A DNA stretch of 63,440 nt, filler included, from Squatina squatina (taxonomy: Eukaryota), in assembly GCA_031763465.1 (NCBI GenBank). It is 3 parts of 2 records of this genome, joined end to end, with 100 filler letters (N's around TTAATTAATTAA, not from the genome) between each part and the next. Parts side by side here need not be neighbours in the genome. Positions count along the whole stretch, not along the records: positions 1 to 30,954 come from JARFOE010000004.1; 2 more parts are not named here. One strand, 5' to 3'. Under the pieces are notes generated by a model. That model searched no databases. It had not been told where the DNA came from and worked only from the letters and a program-made list of their open reading frames with translations. Positions 1-40,504 of the stretch are shown piece by piece (position 1 is the stretch's first letter; the number at the start of each line of letters is the position of its first letter). The position numbers and the translations under genes are program-made.

Positions 1-1466
1 GGTGTTTAAAATCATGAGGGGCCTAGATAGAGTAGAGAGAGAGAGAGAGAAGCTGTTCCCAAACAGTTTGCAATGCCCTTTTCTTTGGGCCTTGAGGCCT
101 TCTTCAGCAGCAGACAGAAGGTCCGTGGAAGGCTGCCAAGCAAACAGCTGCAGGCATCTTAGGTGTACAGCTGCGCCTGTGTTCCTACATGAATACCCAG
201 AGCTGGGCCATACCTGGGGATGGGCCTGCACCGTGGATGTGACCTTTGCCACTCTAGTGGCTCAAAGCACCAAAGTTTGGGCTCACTGCAGCCTGGAAAA
301 GCTTCTGCTGCACTCGACCTGTGCCTGGGCAAGGGGAAGAACACTGGGGGGTGAAGCGTCAAAAGGGTTAGTATTCAAAAAGGAAGTACTATAAAAGTAT
401 GGCGGAAAGGCAGGAAATCGACTCTAGCATAAATAGCTCCAGGTGAAGAATTAGCACTGGCACAGGCTCAATGGACTAAGTGGACTCCTTTAGAGCTGTA
501 ATTTCTAAGACTATGAATACACAGGTGCCATTAATTATTTTTCAATAGTTCAGGTCTGTTTGCTTTTGTAGTACAGGTGACTTTTATTTTAATAGTAAAA
601 TTAAAGCACCCGTTTGACTGCATATTGGGGTGTCTGAATGTCCCATGGATAGGTGGGATGTTTAATTAACATACTAAACCGGACTTCCACAGCGCAATGG
701 AATCCCAATTTCAAATTTACTACTGCCACACAGTTTTCCCGGGGGTTGGGAAACTCAGCAGTGAAAGGGAGCTGGGAGCTGTTGGCTCCACAAGGTAAGT
801 GCCTCTTTCAGCACTCCTTGTGGATCAGGAGGAACAGGAGTGCTCCCCCCAGGCTGTGCATGGATGCCTTCGGCCTCCCCCTACCCTGATTGCTGACCTA
901 TCACCAGCCCCAAATGCTGACCTCCCCACTTCAGCCCCAATTGATGCCTTATCTCCAGCCCCAATTGCAAACCTCTTCACTCCAGCCCCAAATGCCAACC
1001 TCCCCCACCTGATCTTGCGCCTCTCCTCCCTTCCAATTGCCGGGGACCGTCCTCCTCACCCACTCATCGGCCAGGCTGTCCATTTGTCCAGCTGCCAGCT
1101 GGAAAACGGACCTCCAAAATGTTAATGGGGTCCTGCAAAGATCAGCAGGTCCTCCATGTTTCCAGCCTTGCCGGGTTCTTTGGGTGTCTTTAGGCTACCC
1201 CGTACCCTCTAGGCATCACCGTAGATGTCAGGGCCAATGTTTCCGCATAATGGCACCCTATGTGTTATATGTACAAATTAGTGAATATACCAGTGACATA
1301 ATCCAAACAGCTTCCCTGTATATTTACATTTTTCTGTAATAATGACACCCCATTTCAGCTAAATTCAATCATTCTTGTAATCTAAAAGAGTATATTGCTG
1401 GAAAAATGATATAATGATTGACAGTTCCAGTGCCAAAGCCTAACTAGCTTTCTTTATTTTAAACAG

Positions 1467-1631
1467 GTCATTGCTATTGTTATGGACATCTTCACTGATG
1501 TGGATATCTTCAGGGATGTGCTCGAGGCTGCAGCAAGAGGAGTTCCAGTCTACATAGTGCTCGATGACTCCAACTTCAATCACTTCACCAATATGTGTGA
1601 GAAACAAGGAGTTCACCTTCAGAGGCTCATG
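1467..1631 (+). CDS. FAM83B: FAM83B internal exon (DUF1669 / pseudo-PLD domain)
   Basis: Acceptor tttaaacag| and donor |gtaagg; 165 bp, phase 0/0. Translates [55 protein letters not shown], close to recalled human FAM83[41 protein letters not shown]. Confidence 0.93.
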
Positions 1632-2070
1632 GTAAGGGTTTCTTGCGTTAGAGGACCTTCGTCCTTACTCACCTGAAGTGATTATATCCTGGGTTAGAAA
1701 TCTGTTGGCGCCTGGTTTTGGTTGCAAAGGCGGTAATGCAGCTGCAAAGCGTGCCTGCTACAGGAGGCACATGGCTGGCCAGAAGTTGGGCCTCGGGCCT
1801 CAGCCGAATAATCTGGGTGAGCTGCTGGCACCTGTCGCCCGACTGGTGAAATGAATTTCGGGCCACATGTCCTGCCAGCAGCGNNNNNNNNNNNNNNNNN
1901 NNNNNNNNNNNNNNNNNNNNNNNNNNNNNNNNNNNNNNNNNNNNNNNNNNNNNNNNNNNNNNNNNNNNNNNNNNNNNNNNNNNCAGTAACTCATTTCAGA
2001 ATCATTTCGGAATCAATGTGCTAGATATTTATCTTTTTGCAACTAAATGGATGAATTATTGGTTTTTCAG

Positions 2071-4065
2071 CTTTATGTGGTCCTTTGAAAAGATAAACCT
2101 TAGCATGGTACAAGTGATCTCTGGACATTTAGTAGAATCCTATGACGAAGAATTCCGGACAATCTATGCTCGGTCAGATATCCCCAGCATGTTTTCAACT
2201 GAAAACTCCGGATTACTGGGAGAAAGAAAACAGTCATCCTTGTGGCAAAATGGTATTAACCAACATTCAGTATCTTCGTTTGCTTCATCCTCTAACCAGC
2301 GGCAGCCATTCAGTAGGAGGAATCCCACAAGGCATACACTTGACACACTGTATCAAAAATTTCACGGACGGCAAAACATGCATCTAAATGACAATATTGA
2401 TAATAAATTGAATCCACGGAATTTGCATATCAGATCTCACATTACAAATGGTTTAGATGCAACAAACAGAATGAGTCGTCTACAGACTTATGAGAAAAAT
2501 GATTACTGGAAGAGACATAGTTATGCTGGGGAGCAGCCAGAAACATCGCCATATCTTTTGCTGAATAAGGCAAAAAACCCCAGACCTTTATTTCAAAGAA
2601 GTGACCAGAATTTACAGGAAGAAACTGAAAGTGTTTCTTCTTCATCCAGAGGTGAATTTATGTCCAGAGACATTAGAAGTACCTTAGAGCACCTGAAACA
2701 TAGCCGAATAACACCAGGCTTTGAACGGAGCTCAAATATTCGGAGTACATATCATGGACCTAAAACTCTGCACCTGCCTTCCACCCACAAACTGCCAACC
2801 CTAGAACATATGAAAAAGACAGGCTTACGAAACTGGAGAATTGAAAGCTACCTAAATGATAATGTTGGACTTTCAACAAATTCTATCACTGACCAACTCG
2901 ACAACTCTACTCCGAACACAATGGACAGGTTTGATAACCCAGTAGGCTCCAGGATGCAAGGAAATTCAGAATTAATAAGCAGAACGGAAATTAAAACCAA
3001 CCCTAATTTGTCACATTCCCGGTTGCGTTCTTCATTGTTTTTCAAGACCACTATGACAGGACAGCATGAAGTCAGCAGCCATAACTCTGAATCAACAGCT
3101 TTGACTATTGGTACAACATCAGGATCAACAACTCCCCCAAACCATTCATTGAGCAGTATTGGACACTCACTGTTTAATGCAGATAAACAGCATTCCTCAG
3201 ATGATGAGAAGACTCCAACTCAAGAAGGTATCGAACAGTTATCTACCTATTCATCTTCTTTTCACAATGACACTGAGCTGAATCAAAGTCCTAACCTCCA
3301 ATATCAGCACAATTATAGTCAGAGATTCCAAACACATCTGACTGATCAAAAATCAACGCTCGATTACAATGCCAGACAGGAATCGGGACAGTACACGCTA
3401 CCTAAACCAAAATTTAATTCCTCTTCAGGCAGGACTTTGTCAATCCACTCTCTAACTGATACAAAGGGAAATGAATCTCCCAAGATGTGGCATTTGAGGA
3501 AAGACAACAAAGCACTTGAGCAACATTCAAATTTCATTAGAAGAAGCTCAGAGAAAATCAAATCTCTACTCAACATCTCACACGATAAAAGAGATCATGG
3601 GTCTAGAAGTGGAGGGTCAGCCTCATCCTATAAAAAGACGAGCAGTACTGATACTTTGACCTCTGAGGATGATCATCGGGAAAGGAGAAAATTAAGAAAG
3701 TACATATGGAATGACCAAAAGGACAAAACAGCAAGCATATCTTCAAATTCCACAAACACTCCAAAATTTGCTCGAGCCAATAAGCAAGGACAATTACATT
3801 CAGATGTTTATTTGCTTGAGAAGGATATCAAGAGGGGGGGAAATGCATCAGCTCCAAGGTTTGCCACAGAACAACAACTAGATATGGGCAACAGAGAAGA
3901 GAAACTGAGTTCCAGTCCCTCTGTAGCATCTTCCTCTTCTCTTGTGGAGAACCCCAAACACGAAGAGTCGAAAGACACAATCATTACCACAAAAACACAC
4001 TACCAACCTCACGAACGGAGAGTTTACAGTCGTTTTGAAAAAGTATGCACCACACAAAGCAAAAA
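2071..4065 (+). CDS. FAM83B: FAM83B large terminal coding exon, cut off by the gap at 4066
   Basis: Acceptor ggtttttcag|. Begins FMWSFEKINLSMVQVISGHLVESYDEEFRTIYARS (end of DUF1669), then about 2 kb open Ser-rich frame with KRHSYAGEQPE, GLRNWRIESYL, HSRLRSSL and RVYSRFE motifs recalled from FAM83B. The intervening exon was not found and may lie in gap 1884-1983. Confidence 0.92.
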
Positions 4066-6915: not shown

Positions 6916-7061
6916 TCTCCCATGCTCCCCCCGTGACTGCTCTCACCCAGCTTCCCATCTAGGAATTAAAATTCAACCAATAGAAATGGCAAAGGAATGT
7001 GCAAGTAATGAAAAGACAGGGCTTTATCTTTGCTATTTCTAATTCTTTCCTTTTCTCCCAG

Positions 7062-7240
7062 TTTGTGTTGCAGTTTGGAAGAATCGCCACATGCGGACAG
7101 TCACAAACTATTTCATTGTTAATTTGTCATTTGCCGATATCCTTGTTACTATTATCTGTCTTCCTGCTAGTCTACTAGTTGATATAACCGAGACATGGAT
7201 TTTTGGGCAAGTTTTCTGCAAAATAATTCCATACCTACAG
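7062..7240 (+). CDS. HCRTR2: Orexin/hypocretin receptor 2, exon covering end of TM1 to TM3
   Basis: Acceptor ttttctcccag| and donor |gtaagt; 179 bp. (V)CVAVWKNRHMRTVTNYFIVNLSFADILVTIICLPASLLVDITETWIFGQVFCKIIPYLQ matches recalled OX2R, and the position between FAM83B and GFRAL fits. Not shown in the ORF track. Confidence 0.95.
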
Positions 7241-7966
7241 GTAAGTGCTTAATCATTTCTGAGATGTCAATGGCGATAAATGTAAGTTCCAAGCGAGTGT
7301 TCATAGCTGGTTTAAAACAAAACAAACCGATTTACATAATGCAAGCTTAAAAGTTAGAGAGCAAAAGTCAATTGTGAACATTGGAAATCTACAATGGAAG
7401 CAGAAATTACTGGAAATACATTTGTTACAGCTGAAATATCATCATTCTGTTTGATTAAAAAAATTAAATGTAACCTAAAAAGTAATTTAATTCGAGGATG
7501 GTTCAGTGGTCTGAGCACTTGACTCCCAAATAAGGGGAGGGAGTGGTGTCAAGAAGGTTTCCTCTGTCTGCTAAGTGTAACAAATAATAAATCCATTTAT
7601 AAAGAGTGCATTTCTAATTTGACTTCACGCTTGCTGTCTTACTGTGGTGAGGCACTGATTATCGTCCTTCCTGATTCACACGCAATCTCCCTTGACCACT
7701 CAGTTGATAATGTGCTGCACTTGTCCAGTGTGGATCTGGGACATGTACACCAGGAAGGTCCCATGTTCAATTCTGTTGAGTTACCTAATCTACATATTGG
7801 CCTAAGCATCTCTGGACTAGGAGGAGGGAAAGAATCAGCCAGGGTTCCTGTTCCTACCTGGTGACCNNNNNNNNNNNNNNNNNNNNNNNNNNNNNNNNNN
7901 NNNNNNNNNNNNNNNNNNNNNNNNNNNNNNNNNNNNNNNNNNNNNNNNNNNNNNNNNNNNNNNNNN

Positions 7967-8190
7967 TGTACTGACACTTAGCTGCATAGCACTGGACCGC
8001 TGGTATGCTATATGTCATCCACTTATGTTCAAATGTACAGCCAAGCGAGCACGAAACAGCATAATAATGATATGGATTGTATCCTGTGTACTAATGATTC
8101 CCCAGGCAATTGTAATGGAATGCAGCATCCTGGTGCCAGAATTAGCAAACAAAACGCTTTTATTCACCATCTGTGATGAGCACTGGGGAG
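7967..8190 (+). CDS. HCRTR2: Orexin receptor 2, exon covering TM3-TM4-ECL2; 5' end lies in a gap
   Basis: VLTLSCIALDRWYAICHPLMFKCTAKRARNSIIMIWIVSCVLMIPQAIVMECSILVPELANKTLLFTICDEHWG then |gtgagt donor; orexin-type DRWY motif. Confidence 0.95.
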
Positions 8191-8206
8191 GTGAGTGTGT
8201 CCCCAG

Positions 8207-8470
8207 CCTGAATTCCCTGGGTGCCCCTGAATTCCCAGAGTGTGCCTGAATTCTGGGTGTATGCCTGAATTCTGGGTGTATGCCTGAATTCCTTGTTTGC
8301 GCCTAAATTCCGGATGTGTGCCTGAATTCCAGGTGTGTATCTGAATTCCTAGTTTGCACCTGAATTCCTGGTGTTTGCCTGAATTCCCAGAGTGTATCTG
8401 AATTCCCAGTGAGTGTCTGAATTCCCTGTGTGTGCCTGAATTCCAAGAGTGTGACTGAATTCCCAGAGAG
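8207..8470. repeat. 17-20 bp minisatellite with CCTGAATTCC core, just after the HCRTR2 splice donor
   Basis: About 14 visible units such as cctgaattcccagagtgtg and cctgaattctgggtgtatg, running into a gap. Confidence 0.88.
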
Positions 8471-12596: not shown

Positions 12597-12749
12597 GTGA
12601 AGCTTGCACAGTAAAGAATCTCAGCAGTTGTAATATAACTATCCAATACTTAACTGACAGTTACCCGGCATTTAGAGAGTGCAGCTGTCCTGAAGATAAA
12701 TCATGCGACTTTCTCAGACAACTTGGAACACAGTGCACCAGCCAAGGAG
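12597..12749 (+). CDS. GFRAL: GFRAL (GDF15 receptor) exon, second half of domain D1
   Basis: Acceptor ttgcag| and donor |gtaatg; 153 bp, phase 1/1. (G)EACTVKNLSSCNITIQYLTDSYPAFRECSCPEDKSCDFLRQLGTQCTSQG aligns with recalled human GDPCKMRNSSYCNLSIQYLVESNFQFKECLCTDDFYCTVNKLLGKKCINKS. Not in the ORF track. Confidence 0.85.
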
Positions 12750-12984
12750 GTAATGCAACACCCACAAGTGTCTAATGAGGTGGGATCAATGAATTTGCAA
12801 ACAAATGTTCCATTTTTTCTATATGTCGTAAAGTGGCAAGATTCAATGGGACTGATGTACAGCAGCCACAACTCTGCGAGTACACCACATTTAGCCGGAC
12901 TTACACAGGAAGTAGATGCAGCGAAGATAGGCTCCCAAAGATACACTCATGTAGGAGAGCCAGTGTCCGCAACATTTTTTAATT

Positions 12985-13320
12985 CATTCTCTGGATATGG
13001 TTGTCACTGGCATTTATTGTCCATCCCTAGTTGCCATAGTTTGATATAACTGAGTATCTTGCTAGGGGGGAGGTAAGGAGGGCAGTTAAGAGTCAACCTC
13101 GAGTCAGATATAGGTCGGACCAGAAGGTTTCCTTCTCTAAACAGTTAATGAACCAGTTGGATTTTTACAACAATCCGATAGCTTCATGGTAACTTTTACT
13201 GATAGTTTTTTAAATTTCCAGATTTTAAGTGAATACAAATTCTCAAACTGCCATTTGAACTGACAATTGCTGGCTCATTAGTCCAGGTCTCTGGATTAAT
13301 AGTCTAACAACACTACTGTA
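12985..13320 (-). mobile_element. tRNA-derived SINE, same family as 23163-23568
   Basis: Reverse complement shares agactattaatccagagacctggactaatga, catgaagctatcggattgttgtaaaa and atggacaataaatgc blocks with the 23163 copy. Confidence 0.65.
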
Positions 13321-13500
13321 GCCAAATACAGACCCTGGAGTAATGAAGGGGTAGACATAATGGCCAGATGTTTTACCTGGGAACGGGAGGGGGGCCTGGT
13401 AAAGCGTGAGAAACCCAGAAGTCTGGGTGTCCCCAAATGTTANNNNNNNNNNNNNNNNNNNNNNNNNNNNNNNNNNNNNNNNNNNNNNNNNNNNNNNNNN

Positions 13501-13787
13501 TCTAAAATCCACAAATTGCAGTTCAGTGTATGCAAAGTTTAAGAAGCTGTGCAAGAACAAGAAAGATAACTGCAGCATCCCATCTGTAGGACAACAGTGT
13601 CTAACTGCATGGCAAGCATTACAGCACACAAAGCTCGCTAACTGTGGCTGTTCAAGACAGGGAAGACTAAAATGCTTGAGAATACGGACCAGCCTTTCCA
13701 ACAATGCGTGCGTGCTAATTGCACACAAAAATCTAAGTACAAGCAGTGATGAAGGAAGGAAAGAGAATAACCCTGGTGGGGGCAGCA
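13501..13787 (+). CDS. GFRAL: Additional GFRalpha-type cysteine-rich domain exon within GFRAL; 5' end in gap
   Basis: LKSTNCSSVYAKFKKLCKNKKDNCSIPSVGQQCLTAWQALQHTKLANCGCSRQGRLKCLRIRTSLSNNACVLIAHK...; 8 Cys in GFRalpha spacing including CxC. Phase-1 donor |gtacgt at 13788, with an alternative phase-1 |gtgggg at 13776. Confidence 0.8.
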
Positions 13788-13907
13788 GTACGTTTGCATT
13801 AGTTCCTTCTAACACTTTGAACACAGATTCTTTTATGTTTTGAATCTACTATTGATATCTGGGCCTAGTTTATGTACATAGTGTTTTCGCTATTCTTTCT
13901 ATTGCAG

Positions 13908-13979
13908 GTACAGCTGACTTAATGAAGAGCGGAAAATCAACAACAGAGTCCACTGCTCTTGCCAGATATGATAATGAAA
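13908..13979 (+). CDS. GFRAL: Probable GFRAL short linker exon
   Basis: Acceptor tctttctattgcag| and donor |gtaaga; 72 bp, phase 1/1, open (TADLMKSGKSTTESTALARYDNE). Joins the flanking exons in frame. Confidence 0.7.
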
Positions 13980-14893
13980 GTAAGAGACAAAAGAGCCTTT
14001 CCCATCAGGAGCATATATTGACTAATTGGCCCTAAAAGATGCAATTTTACACAGCCTCATAATTACTACAAGAAAATCCCACTAGATGCTCCTAATTTTC
14101 CTTTACTGGAGTGTAACGTCAAGCCTGAATTGCCATTAGCATGTGTCTCTGCCTAACACATCTATGTTTCCTGATGGATGCTATGCAGATGAACTTAAGG
14201 GGCCAGCTATACCACAGCTGGCAGACCAGGGTTGTATTGTTGGCTCCCTCGTCACTGACCAGGGATCACAGCACTTCATACAGAGTTCTGCTCACCAGCT
14301 TCCAATTGTCAGAGTGAAATTCTAATGTTAAGAGAGCTGATGGACTGAGTGTACAATGCTAACATTAAAAACATAGAAAATTAGGTTTAAAATGTTCCCA
14401 GATGGTCCATTGGACTGCCTGGGAACCTTTTAAACTTGGCTTCAAAATGGAGTGCAGTTATTGAGCATTTGGCATAAAACCCAGTTGGTATGAGACTACC
14501 CCTTGGAGAGTCAGGAGCTCACCCTTTTACTAGAACACAGTCAGAATGTCAACCTGGCCTCCAAGTTATACTTCTGCCTTTGTGTTGATGTGCCTCCAAA
14601 ACTATGNNNNNNNNNNNNNNNNNNNNNNNNNNNNNNNNNNNNNNNNNNNNNNNNNNNNNNNNNNNNNNNNNNNNNNNNNNNNNNNNNNNNNNNNNNNNNN
14701 NNNNNNCAGATCAGCCATGATCACGTTGAATGGTGGAACAGGCTCAAGGGGCTGAATGGCCTCCTCCTGGTCCTATGTTCCAACAACATAGAGTTCTTGT
14801 GATGTTCCAGACCTGCAGGTGTAGCTTTATTGTCTTAAACAATGCCTTTTGCATAGTGTGCTCGCTTTCTGACAGTATTCTGTTTGCATTTAG

Positions 14894-15227
14894 AGCAGAA
14901 ACATTCCATGTCTTGCTTGAAAGTAACCGAGCAATGCATTAAGGATCAAAACGTGTGTAACAGGCACTTAACTCCACAGAAGAAGGCTTGTCCTCATGCT
15001 CGTAAACATTGCAACCTCAAAAATTGTCACAGTGCAATTCGATCCTTTTACACAAAAATCTCACCAGACCTTGCTCAGAGGTTAGTGTTCTGTGGGTGCC
15101 ATCCATCCGATGAACTTTGTCTGCAAGCAAAGGAAATCCTTCATAACAATTCCTGTGCCAATCACATGGACACAAAGCCCACATGTCTACATCTGAGAGA
15201 AAAATGCCTCAGCGAAGATGTATGCAG
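14894..15227 (+). CDS. GFRAL: GFRAL exon: domain D2 and start of D3
   Basis: Acceptor gcatttag| and donor |gttagt, phase 1/2. SCLKVTEQCIKDQNVCNRHL...CHSAIRSFYTKISPDLAQRLVFCGCHPSDELCLQAKEILHNNSCANHMDTKPTCLHLREKCLSEDVCR aligns with recalled human CQAAIRFFYQNIPFNIAQMLAFCDCAQSDIPCQQSKEALHSKTCA. Confidence 0.92.
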
Positions 15228-28329: not shown

Positions 28330-29787
28330 CTTGGGAAATTTTAACCTGGAGGAGCACGTGGATTTGGGTGCAGGTGGCGGCTGGGTGGGGTGGGGAGTAA
28401 AACTGGCAAAAATGTGAGTGCGTCAGGAAGCTGGCTCCAACCCGCTGACTTCTGCGTTTAACTCAAGCGTGTTAGACTGCTTTTGCGCAATCCCCTTGGG
28501 AAGGGCAGGTTGCCTATTAACATATGCTAATCGCTCAATTGGAGTGATATTTCAACAAAATTTTAAATTTAGCATCTCATCCATGTGTTTCCCAGGCCTC
28601 CTGAAACTCACCAGTAAAAACAATGACAATTGAGGGGGCTGATTAAAACTGCAATAAATACTCAGTACTCACAGCTGCTTTGCTTTACCTACTAGTGGGA
28701 AAGGGTTTGTTCACAGTATTTTTGCTGAGCATTTACCTTCTACACTTTGGAGATTTTCTGAATCACATCAGGCTGGGTGGCACCTTGGCTGACCTTGGAC
28801 GAGGAGCAATATGACCAGCAGCAGCCTGCTGTTCATCGATCCCAAGCTGGACAGCTAGAGGGAAGCAGAAGAGAGGAAAGCATCAGAGGGGAGCAACTCA
28901 CAGGAGGCACTACTCACAGCACAGCACAGGGTATACAGGCAGAGGCTGAGTTTCCTTGACATGGTAGAACACCAGTACCTCAGGAGGCTCAGGTTGTTGT
29001 GTCAGGTGGTGGCAGACATCTGCAGCCTCATAAAAGATGACCTGCTCCCTGCTGGACCTAGTGGCAATGTGTTACCAGTTGCTGTCAAAGTGACCACCGC
29101 CTTCAACCTTTTTTGCATCCAGATCCTTCCAGGTCTCTGTCGGGGACATATCCAGGATCTCCCAGTTGGCAGGCCATAAGTGCATAAGACAGGTGTCTGA
29201 TGGATTGTTTGCCATGGCTGGCAATTATGTGAACTTCACCTGCGATGACACCAGACAAAGTGAGCAGGCGCTTGGGTTTGTTTTTCTGGCTGGCTTCCCA
29301 CAGGTGCAGGCTTCATCGACTGCACATACGTGGCAATCCGCGCACCCCCAGATCAACCAGGAGTATTCGTGAACCACAAGGGCTTCCACTCTATCAATGT
29401 GCAGCTGGTATGCAATCACAAAATTTTAGTTTCTGCAGATGTATGCAAGATTCCCGTGGAGCTGCCATGAAGCTTTTGTCTACGGCAGCCCAACCTCCCT
29501 TATGTCTTTGGACCTACTTAAAGGGTGGCTGCAAGGAGACAAGGGATACCCAATTCAAACTTGGCTGATAACACCTGTCAGAAACTCAACCAATGAAGCC
29601 CAATAGTGCTATAATGAATGCCACATAAATGTGGCAAAACAGCCATCAGCGTGCTGAAGATGCACTTCAGGTGCCTAGACATCTGGAGGTGCTCTTGAGA
29701 ATGCATCAGCCAGGGTCTCCAGAATGGCCGGAGTATACTGTCCTCTGCCCAACATTACACAGCAACGAGGGTGGGACCTGCAGGAGG
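28330..29787 (+). mobile_element. PIF/Harbinger DNA transposon remnant (HARBI1-like DDE transposase pseudogene)
   Basis: Fragments across frames: RRLRL...DICSLIKDDL...LPVAVKVTTAFNLF, AGFPQVQ / FIDCTYVAI, VNHKGFHSINVQLVC, GWLQGDKGYP; multiple frameshifts and stops. Confidence 0.88.
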
Positions 29788-36766: not shown

Positions 36767-38463
36767 CGACAATTTCAACTCATGTCACATAATATACTCG
36801 GATAAAAATGCAAATACTGGCACATCTTCTTTTAAATTAGAATTACCATAGCATACTTTATTTTTTTTAATAAAGACTGCATCATTTGCATATATTTCAT
36901 CACAAGAGCTGATACAACCTTCTGAAAATTTCATAAATACTTTCAGATACACTTAAACAAAGACAAAATATTCAGAGAACCCAAAGGAACAAATTGATTC
37001 ACATACCCTGGTCTGCATTACAAGGCAATAATGGCTCGTTATTAAATAGAAATAACATTTATTGATATTAAACTCAGGGTTAAGGTAGGTCAAACTAATC
37101 CAGCAATGAAGGAAGTAAAAACTGGCAGAGGAGTTGACAGGAGTACAGTGTCACGGTACAATAATTCATTAAACTTTACGTGGAGATGGGTGGCCAGGTA
37201 GAGAGGATGAAACAAGTTGTGATTGGATAAAGCTCAGCTTGAGTCTTAAAAATCTATACATAGGATATACAGCACAGAAACAGGCCATTCGACCCAACCA
37301 CTCCATGCTAGAGTTTATGCTCCACTCANNNNNNNNNNNNNNNNNNNNNNNNNNNNNNNNNNNNNNNNNNNNNNNNNNNNNNNNNNNNNNNNNNNNNNNN
37401 NNNNNNNNNNNNNNNNNNNNNNNNNNNNAGGGACCCACATTTATTTTCATTAATCTCTTCCTTTTTATATACCTATAGAAGCTTTTACAGTCTGCTTTAA
37501 TGTTTCTTGCTAGTTTACTCTAGTATTCTATTTTCTCTTTCTTTATCAATTTCTTTGAATTCTAAAATCCTCCTCAGGCTTACTACTGTTTTTGGCAACC
37601 TTTAATCTAATACTATCTTTAAGAGGGAATAGCCAGGACTTTTAAACTTAGCCATTTATGGATCAGTTCAATTTGCACTTGGACCACCAGTTGGTGTACT
37701 TCCAACTCTACAAGAAATTTGTTTGTCATCAAGTAGGCAGTAACCAAAATCCTTGTGATGTCATGTCCACACAACAGTTGCTTCAAGATAGTTTTATGGA
37801 CGATGATTAACCTCTAATGTGCATGCTTATAGTTGCTCAAATAAATGAATTTGTAGGATGAGATCTTCAGAGCTCATGGTATATTCCTTTCATTGTTCCC
37901 TAATCTGTCTGTTAATCAACTATTTGATATTTTTTGTAAAAAAAAACTTGTTGCTGAACAATTACACCTGTAATGACCTCATCCTCGAAATACATGGTTA
38001 GACAGTGGAGTCCTTCGACACAGCCTTAAAGCAGCTGATAATGAGATGGTAATCAAGGCGTCTGAATGGTAGCTGGTGTGGCAATAGGGCAACATAGCAA
38101 TAGGGCAACATAGGAATATCAAATGTTTTTTAAGACTAGAAGACTGCAATGAATATTAGTGTGCAATGTTCAAGACTGAATAGGTAAGACAGGTGGTCTA
38201 CTTTTAAATCTAGGGAACCTGGGAAGGTAAAGAAATAAATCCTGTTACGTGAAATGATATCTAATTAATTACTTTGATTAGACATTTTAACATGAAGAAT
38301 AAAGTAGGGACATGTTACAGAAAGCTGGTACAGAAGAGAGGAAGCTTACTCTACTCTATGAATNNNNNNNNNNNNNNNNNNNNNNNNNNNNNNNNNNNNN
38401 NNNNNNNNNNNNNNNNNNNNNNNNNNNNNNNNNNNNNNNNNNNNNNNNNNNNNNNNNNNNNNN

Positions 38464-39232
38464 ATGTTTACTTTTGCTAATCTCTTCATTTTTACATACT
38501 TGTAAAAGCTCTTACAATCTATTTTTATATTTCTTGTTAGTTTACTCTCATATTCTGTTTTCTCCCTTATTATTAATTTCTTGTTCATCCTTTGCTGATT
38601 TCTATATCCCTCCCAATCCTCAGGCTTACTACTCTTTTAATCTAATACTATCCTTAATTTCTCTAGTTGGCCATTCCTCAAGGGAATGGATATTCATTGA
38701 GAATTGTGAATTATTTCTTTAACTATTTGCCATTGCTTACCTACAGTCATATCTTTTAATCAAATTTCTCAACCTACCGCAGTCAACTCGCCCCTCATAC
38801 CTATGTATTTGGCTTTGTTTAAATTTAATTCCCTAGTTTCAGATTTAACCACATCACTCTCAAACTTATTATGAAATTCTACCATATTATGATTACTTTT
38901 CCCCAGAGGATCCTTTACTTTAAGATTACTAATTAACTCTGACTAATTATACAATGCTGGATAAAAAAATAAATCCTGTTCCCCAGTTGTTTCCTCAATT
39001 ATTGTTCCAGAAGAATGCCTTGAATGCATTATATGAACTTGTCCTCCAAGCTACTTTTGCCAATTTGGTTTGCCCAGTCTATATGTAGATTAAAGTTCCC
39101 CATGGTAATGGCTTTATGCTTGTCACATGCTATTCTAATTTCCTGATTCATACTCTGTCCAACACTATGATTACTGTTCAGGGGTCTATAAACTATTCCA
39201 CCAGTGTTTTCTGCCCTTTGTTGGATTCAAAT
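38464..39232 (-). mobile_element. Degenerate CR1-type LINE ORF2 (endonuclease / linker region)
   Basis: Minus peptide KKLIIREKTEYESKLTRNIKIDCKSFYKYVKMKRLAKVN plus upstream MGNFNLHIDW-like sequence; a related piece lies at 37429-37620. Confidence 0.75.
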
Positions 39233-39260
39233 GTTTGCTTTGTCGTGGCTNNNNNNNNNN

Positions 39261-40504
39261 AGAAGAGGCTGTGATGGCCATTAACAGAGAGAAGGTAAGG
39301 TGTGGGACTAATATTGAATGGAGAATTGGGGTTGTGTTCACTGTACTGCAGGTGCTTGGTTCGACCCTGGATACCCCAGCCAGAAAGGGGCAGTCTGGGT
39401 TGCCTCCTTCCTTCCGCTCGGTCCTCCTCCTCTTCCTCTTCCTTCTCCTCCTCTTCCTCCTCCTCTTCCTCCTTCTCCTTCATCTGCTCCTGAATTGGTG
39501 ACCATATCCCTGGTGGCAAGGGCTGTGTCCTCATGATGGCCATGTTGTGGCGGATACAGCAGACCACCACAAATTGGGACATATGCGCACTGTAGGGGTC
39601 TTGCAGAGTGGTCCAGACAGCGGAACCGTTTCTTTAGCATCCCAATGGTCTGCTCTATGATGTTTCCTGTGCTAACATGGCTATCGTTGTACTCACGTTG
39701 CTCACGTGTGGTTGGGTTGCAGAGCAAAGTCATAGGTCAGGCGGTCAAGGGATAGCCCTTGTCGCCCACTAGCCACCTTCTGATTTGTCTTGGTGGCAAA
39801 GACTGAGGAAACAGTGAACTGGCGCAGAATAAAACCAGGATACTGGCCATTCACCATTATGATGTGCTGAGCATGGCAGCACACCAACTGCACATTCAGT
39901 GAGTGGTAACCTTTGCGGTTGTGGTATATCTCAGTATTTAGATATTGTGCCCACAAAGCCATGTGCGTGCAGTCAATGGCACCCTGCACCATTGGGAAGT
40001 CCGCTATCCTGGCAAAGCATGTATATTCTGTCTGCTTCTCTCTGGTCAGAGAGAAGCCAATTAACTTCCTCTGCTAGCATAAAAAGTGTCTGTCGGCTCT
40101 TTTATACTCCAGTGGACGGCAAACTATGAAGTGTTACAAATGCTCCCTGCTCCAGCCTGGAAGGATCCCAACACAAAGAAATTCAGGGCCATGGTTACCT
40201 TCACAGCCACTGGCAGTGATGCCCTTTCCCTGGAGTGAGGCTGCAGGTCTGGTTGCAAAAGGTGGCAGAGTTCTGTGAGCACCTCCTTCATAAAGTGCAG
40301 ATGCCTCACACGCTGCTCCTGGCTCAGGTTGAGGTAAAAGAATTGCTCACAGGAGACATTATGTGGGTAAGGCCTCCTGCTGAGAGCCCTTTTCCCACTC
40401 CTCCTCCTCTCTCTGCAAGCAGCTTGTCCTATTCGTTGCTACCTCTGCTCCATCTCCCTGTCATGCTGAAGCCCAAGGGAGATGGCAACTGGAGCACCCA
40501 GGAT
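39261..40504 (-). mobile_element. PIF/Harbinger transposase pseudogene
   Basis: EVLTELCHLLQPDL...LPVAVKVTMALNFF, VQGAIDCTHMAL...NRKGYHSLNVQLVC, NIIEQTIGMLKKRFRCLD and an acidic poly-E tail; frameshifted. Confidence 0.9.

Follow-up and report, generated by a model that had tools for sequence, protein, structure and literature searches.

The GFRAL locus of Squatina squatina

The window, a stretch of 63,440 nucleotides of DNA from the shark Squatina squatina, carries exons of three genes in the order FAM83B-HCRTR2-GFRAL (Table 1). In humans GFRAL is the receptor of GDF15, a hormone of nausea and appetite, and it is a drug target in obesity, cachexia and pregnancy sickness. A preliminary description of this DNA had assigned the third gene to GFRAL, and the assignment is borne out by the match of the D2 exon to human GFRAL and by the flanking genes. 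The D2 exon matches human GFRAL with an E value of 1.4e-21, as against 2e-8 for GFRalpha2 and otherwise weaker matches to GFRalpha1-3, and all of its ten matches (10/10) are named GFRAL-type. The stretch 7968-8246 has its best match in orexin receptor 2 (E 1e-41), and mammalian GFRAL has the same flanking genes, FAM83B and HCRTR2, according to the available excerpts of PMC7365868. The nearest relatives are sharks, with 88% identity to Heptranchias in the extra exon and 93% to Cetorhinus in D2.

Table 1. Features of the window at and around the shark GFRAL gene
Feature	Position	Strand	Remarks
FAM83B exons, second upstream neighbour	1422..4063	+	synteny marker
HCRTR2-type (orexin receptor) exons, upstream neighbour	7043..8246	+	two frames, 7tm_1 in both
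First GFR domain, second half (called D1 in human; probably derived from D0)	12597..12749	+	153 nt, phase 1-1
58-N scaffold gap	13443..13500	.	hides the splice acceptor and the first ~127 nt of the extra exon (42 residues with 2 Cys)
Extra exon, visible part: GFR domain (likely true D1)	13501..13787	+	8/10 Cys visible
Linker exon	13908..13979	+	72 nt, phase 1-1; sits where human GFRAL keeps a short linker
D2 (ligand-binding domain in human GFRAL) and start of D3	14894..15227	+	334 nt, phase 1-2

The four GFRAL exons were found where the preliminary description had placed them, with open frames and with AG/GT splice ends wherever these are visible. The first of them had been taken for a D1 exon; it does belong to the first domain but comprises its second half only, and its peptide is 85-91% identical to the Heptranchias and Heterodontus models. 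The extra exon is a single open frame followed by a phase-1 donor (GTACGT), and its product is basic, with a net charge of +12 up to the last cysteine. It passes the Pfam GDNF/GAS1 check (PF02351) with 25.4 bits against a cut-off of 22 (E 2.4e-5), and this score, the ten cysteines and an all-helical GFR fold identify it as a real GFR domain, as had been proposed. The number of cysteines had been given as eight, which holds for the visible part but not for the full domain. The exon starts within the 58-N gap, where its acceptor is hidden; 42 residues with two more cysteines lie ahead of the visible part in 8/8 elasmobranch models, and related-organism DNA contigs (4/4 runs) carry two cysteine codons in frame immediately 5' of 13501. 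The domain therefore has ten cysteines, not eight.

When the extra exon, the linker exon and the D2 exon are joined, a stop-free translation of 230 residues results, which is 75-87% identical to all six of the elasmobranch models tested; leaving out the extra exon likewise gives an uninterrupted frame, of 185 residues. Throughout the six frames of the window, only two stop-free frames of at least 95 residues have eight or more cysteines within 72 residues, and these are the extra exon and the D2 exon. A tblastn search of the window did not find exons for the first half of the first domain, D3, the transmembrane segment or the tail, nor any other GFRAL exon; the GFRAL models of relatives end in a hydrophobic helix followed by a short tail. 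At 15079-15081 the D2 exon encodes Arg. Met stands at this place in 48 of the 66 proteins matched and Arg in none (0/66); the Arg may have arisen in the lineage or be allelic, or the base may be wrong. The introns contain high-copy short repeats with very deep contig cover at 14707-14781 and 12970-13250.

The scaffold is heavily gapped (38 N runs) and amounts to a compressed string of short contigs. The three GFRAL pieces lie on different contigs, their order being given by scaffolding and by relatives' models, and a second N gap separates the linker exon from the D2 exon. The extra exon and the linker exon are on one contig, both here and in related-organism contigs. Far downstream, 61044-61544 holds an acetylcholine receptor gamma/epsilon-type exon, which matches best to Torpedo-type gamma chains (E 6e-30) and the frame of which continues into repeat-like sequence; its presence suggests that the scaffold joins distant contigs. 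A 184-residue open frame with a coiled-coil stretch and a weak Pfam match below cut-off is found at 58693-59244, and fragments of a DDE_Tnp_4 transposase at 29264-29467 (+) and 39341-40073 (-). Positions ~576-786 of the Heterodontus GFRAL model (P0003) match repeat-like stretches at 37442-39763, and the C-terminus of this model is probably mis-predicted.

Distribution of the extra domain among vertebrate GFRAL models

A search with the extra exon gave nine matches among 30 candidates, eight of which are named elasmobranch GFRAL models, with 66-88% identity along 95-100% of its length. By profile search, 250 proteins reached E 0.001 or better; the best 150 of them were considered and 30 were looked up by name. 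Taken together with scoring by shark-domain profiles, these searches show the extra domain in the GFRAL models of at least 27 named vertebrate species, namely 8 elasmobranchs and 19 bony vertebrates. They include fish (gar, bowfin, conger, masu salmon, Denticeps and lungfish), amphibians (caecilian, newt and frog), seven sauropsids (two birds and five squamates) and three marsupials with the whole domain (bilby, Petaurus and Sarcophilus); XP_015218150 (gar), XP_032911783 (thrush) and XP_074046102 (bilby) are examples. Cysteine counts in this set range from 8 to 11, and other parts are missing in some models. The cysteines and the frame of the extra domain are kept from sharks to marsupials. 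This spread across elasmobranch and bony-vertebrate models supports the proposal that four domains were the original state of the receptor in jawed vertebrates. Automated non-mammalian gene models already contain the extra exon, a point that had earlier been left open, and the domain itself, being already in public databases, is less surprising; the automated non-placental GFRAL models contain it and carry no description of it. A search of the open literature found no description of the domain or of the D0/D1 relabelling discussed below, though Airaksinen 2006 and Hatinen 2007 (GRAL exon structure) may cover it. The available excerpts of PMC12542990, PMC4349606, PMC5415192 and PMC7529620 do not mention the extra domain, and the publications covered describe GFRAL as a three-domain protein with a D1 that has no clear role.

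Named models without the extra domain come from jerboa (2), Ranitomeya (isoform X2), Gopherus, Pleurodeles, Varanus and Acnodon; in Callorhinchus, one model begins inside the domain and a second omits it. The exon might thus be ancient and D1-derived and yet be a cassette that is usually skipped, in which case the main receptor of non-mammals would have three domains like that of humans. The phase symmetry of the exon, the open reading of the skipped form and the exon-less models of Ranitomeya, Gopherus, Pleurodeles, Varanus, Acnodon and Callorhinchus (one model) fit this reading, but it seems unlikely in view of the presence of the exon in 8/8 named elasmobranch models, in 4/4 full gar isoforms and in 5/5 of the thrush isoforms listed, and of the preservation of its cysteines and frame. 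On the basis of automated protein models, it is highly probable that the extra exon is part of the main shark transcript.

Several three-domain GFRAL models with a short linker, of 32 residues in Acnodon, are also found in the teleost clade (P0050, P0051, P0052 and P0057); as against the four-domain models of conger, Denticeps and salmon, they may reflect a separate second loss of the exon, or its skipping. Five GFR domains are present in P0104 and a repeated D2-D3 block in P0096, and P0139 is a four-domain protein the second domain of which falls within the GFRAL group on a long branch.

In agreement with the preliminary description, human GFRAL lacks the extra domain and keeps only a short linker, as is seen from alignment to a marsupial-clade model: the human chain (6q2j) aligns in two pieces, 23-108 and 249-492, with about 140 residues absent. 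The alignment of GFRalpha1/2 chains to the same model runs from the extra domain onward. Jerboa GFRAL proteins lack the domain as well. A loss in mammals as a whole, which had been proposed, does not hold, in that the whole domain occurs in the three marsupials and complete or half copies occur in placental-type proteins; judging from these protein sequences, the loss is partial and within placentals. The placental copies are those of protein models, some of them partial. P0062 has a complete 10-Cys copy after a first domain that is close to the human one (E 7.8e-39) and groups with that of jerboa (98/99), and P0129 has a second complete copy; the Camelus ferus model (P0025) has the C-terminal half, P0031 the N-terminal half and P0035 a divergent domain. 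These five placental-type domains form a clade (96/96) that is sister to the marsupial domains. That different halves are gone from the half copies suggests separate decay after the placental radiation. The start of P0038, in the placental clade, resembles by eye the last helix of the extra domain and is a possible remnant. The GDF15 propeptide has been simplified in placentals (PMC7299427), the same group in which the receptor exon decays, which may be a coincidence or a link.

Homology of the extra and first domains

Three sets of proteins, 16 four-domain ones of invertebrate type, 16 GFRALs with four domains and 6-7 of GFRalpha type, were made into class profiles, the class labels being those assigned in this analysis, with 7/16 invertebrate and 3/7 GFRalpha proteins named or in a named cluster. 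The extra domain finds its best match in invertebrate D1 in 16/16 cases and invertebrate D1 in the extra domain in 16/16, so that the two are mutual best matches between profiles, and GFRalpha D1 goes to invertebrate D1 in 7/7 and, among the GFRAL domains, to the extra domain in 7/7. The hhalign score of the extra domain is 109.8 with invertebrate D1, 61.9 with invertebrate D0 and 61.2-69.5 with GFRalpha D1; the D2 and D3 profiles each match their own invertebrate counterpart (16/16). In the tree, the extra domain, GFRalpha D1 and invertebrate D1 are on the same side of a branch with support of 89/83 (unstarred). A D1-type motif, which like the D0-type motif below was picked by eye after the alignment had been viewed, is present in 9/16 invertebrate D1, 15/16 extra domains and 6/7 GFRalpha D1, and in none elsewhere. 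The resemblance to GFRalpha D1 that had been noticed in the preliminary description is thus upheld by the class profiles and the tree branch, while the extra exon matches GFRalpha D1 chains weakly when compared with them directly (E 0.06-0.12). In GFRA1, D1 is encoded by one phase 1-1 exon, which is followed by a short linker exon and then the D2 exon. From these sequence comparisons, the extra domain is very likely to be D1.

The first domain of GFRAL, called D1 in the human protein, matches invertebrate D0 best in 13/16 cases. The D0-type motif is found in 11/16 invertebrate D0, 13/16 first domains, 1/16 invertebrate D1 and 0/16 extra domains, and in 1/6 first domains of three-domain GFRAL models. 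Against its being D0, the reverse match is found in 0/16, invertebrate D0 being best on the extra domain in 15/16 (hhalign 38.8 vs 32.0), and the AU tests given below do not set this placement apart from two others. On balance, the first domain is fairly likely to be D0.

Another explanation is that the extra domain arose in early jawed vertebrates when either the first domain or D2 was duplicated inside GFRAL, that its likeness to D1 is convergent, and that human 'D1' is an ordinary D1. AU tests on 80 columns reject none of the groupings first domain+GFRalpha D1 (p 0.455), first domain+invertebrate D0 (p 0.377) and first domain+extra domain (p 0.40), the first and the last of which suit a duplication, and the first domain is best on D1 in 12/16 among the three GFRalpha profiles. 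The hhalign scores between the first and the extra domain (22.6-25.5), however, are far below those of the extra domain with invertebrate D1 and GFRalpha D1, and the first domain scores only 16.9-18.0 with GFRalpha D1; moreover, the D0-type and D1-type motifs split the two classes, and descent of the extra domain from D2 is marginally rejected by the AU test (p 0.047). Such a duplication is quite improbable. It is hardly credible that scaffolding misplaced here a dead copy or an exon of some other GFRA or GAS1 locus, since, despite the N gaps before the exon and between linker and D2 and a scaffold of compressed short contigs with an acetylcholine-receptor exon at about 61 kb, the same exon order in chromosome-scale models of eight elasmobranchs largely refutes misplacement, the extra and linker exons share a contig here and in related-organism contigs, and the exon is without stop or frameshift.

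The stretch is best explained as part of a shark-type GFRAL gene in which an open exon encodes a fourth GFR domain; this exon is likely to be spliced in, and its domain is likely to be the true D1 of the family, so that the protein would keep the layout D0-D1-D2-D3. The order of the four domains matches that of invertebrate D0-D1-D2-D3, which argues that the four-domain form is probably older than jawed vertebrates. A bilaterian four-domain ancestor would have given rise to GFRalpha1-4 by loss of D0 and to GFRAL with all four domains. Some placentals and, perhaps independently, some teleosts would later have dropped the phase-symmetric D1 exon or let it decay. Human GFRAL 'D1' would be D0, a different and older domain than GFRalpha D1, to which it would not correspond. 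In that case D0 and D1 function could be tested directly in a vertebrate receptor that keeps the four-domain plan of the bilaterian ancestor, and fish, bird, marsupial and perhaps some placental models would have a receptor unlike the human one.

Putative function and relation to known receptors

A structure model of a relative (105 sequences) has four folded domains, with D2-D3 superposed on human GFRAL at 1.5 A. Superposed on full-length GFRalpha1/2, the model gives an rmsd of about 10 A over 239-253 residues (pTM 0.46), and the extra domain is not placed in the pose of GFRalpha D1, packed on D3. By analogy with human GFRAL, D2 would bind the ligand, which by orthology is probably GDF15, and D3 would bind RET, so that signalling would likely proceed via D2 and D3; the extra D1 would then be an accessory domain dispensable for RET activation. 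The net charge of its basic loop is +3 to +5 in 5/5 elasmobranchs and +1 to +5 in 7/7 GFRalpha D1, and it falls to zero in the caecilian (0) and to an acidic value in the bilby (-2). As far as sequence goes, shark D1 keeps the basic loop that in GFRalpha1 binds heparan sulfate, such binding by GFRAL being putative. That the loop helps to hold heparan sulfate or steadies ligand binding, like GFRalpha1 D1, is a tentative suggestion.

A broader proposal, which is doubtful as it stands, is that human GFRAL is a truncated form. The ancestor would have had D0-D1-D2-D3 with a heparan-sulfate-binding D1, and the exon would have remained intact through marsupials into the placental ancestor. Several lineages of placentals would then have lost it by independent decay, with some others retaining and splicing an intact copy, and the human intron may still hold a remnant of it or a cryptic cassette. 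If the human form is truncated, GDF15 signalling and the action of anti-GFRAL drugs would vary by species beyond what human and mouse structures cover.

Human GFRAL (PDB 5VZ4, 6Q2J), a hindbrain-restricted GDF15-RET co-receptor with three GFR domains, shares with the shark gene D2, the neighbouring genes, the first domain and the short linker, and differs in lacking about 140 residues that contain the extra 10-Cys domain. Its N-terminal domain, called D1, is invisible in cryo-EM, as is D1 of GFRalpha1 and 3, according to the available excerpts of PMC6760901; loss of the true D1, human 'D1' being D0, would explain this invisibility, but D1 of GFRalpha1 and 3 is invisible likewise. The same loss would account for the glycan site that D1 and D2 form in GFRalpha1-3 being absent from GFRAL (bioRxiv 10.64898/2026.05.20.726209). 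With D1 of GFRalpha1-3, the extra domain shares a motif before CxC, a basic loop after it and a position ahead of the linker and D2. GFRalpha D1, on the other hand, has eight cysteines, and its linker carries the SPYE motif, which docks on D3, whereas the extra domain has ten cysteines and no SPYE; SPY[ED] occurs in 10/178 proteins, nine GFRalpha-type and one GFRAL model, in which its place was not located. Invertebrate Gfr-like proteins, among them models from prawn, moth, Daphnia, an aphid relative and a nemertean, have four 10-Cys domains in the same order as shark-type GFRAL. Among them, Drosophila DmGfrl has four domains, D0-D3, the D1-D3 exons of which have been proposed to share a common origin with vertebrate GFRalpha genes, and it carries a GPI anchor and a long C-terminal region and did not mediate Ret phosphorylation, as stated in the available excerpts of PMC3527400. 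The models of relatives of the shark gene end in a hydrophobic helix and a short tail, and the D0 match is weak.
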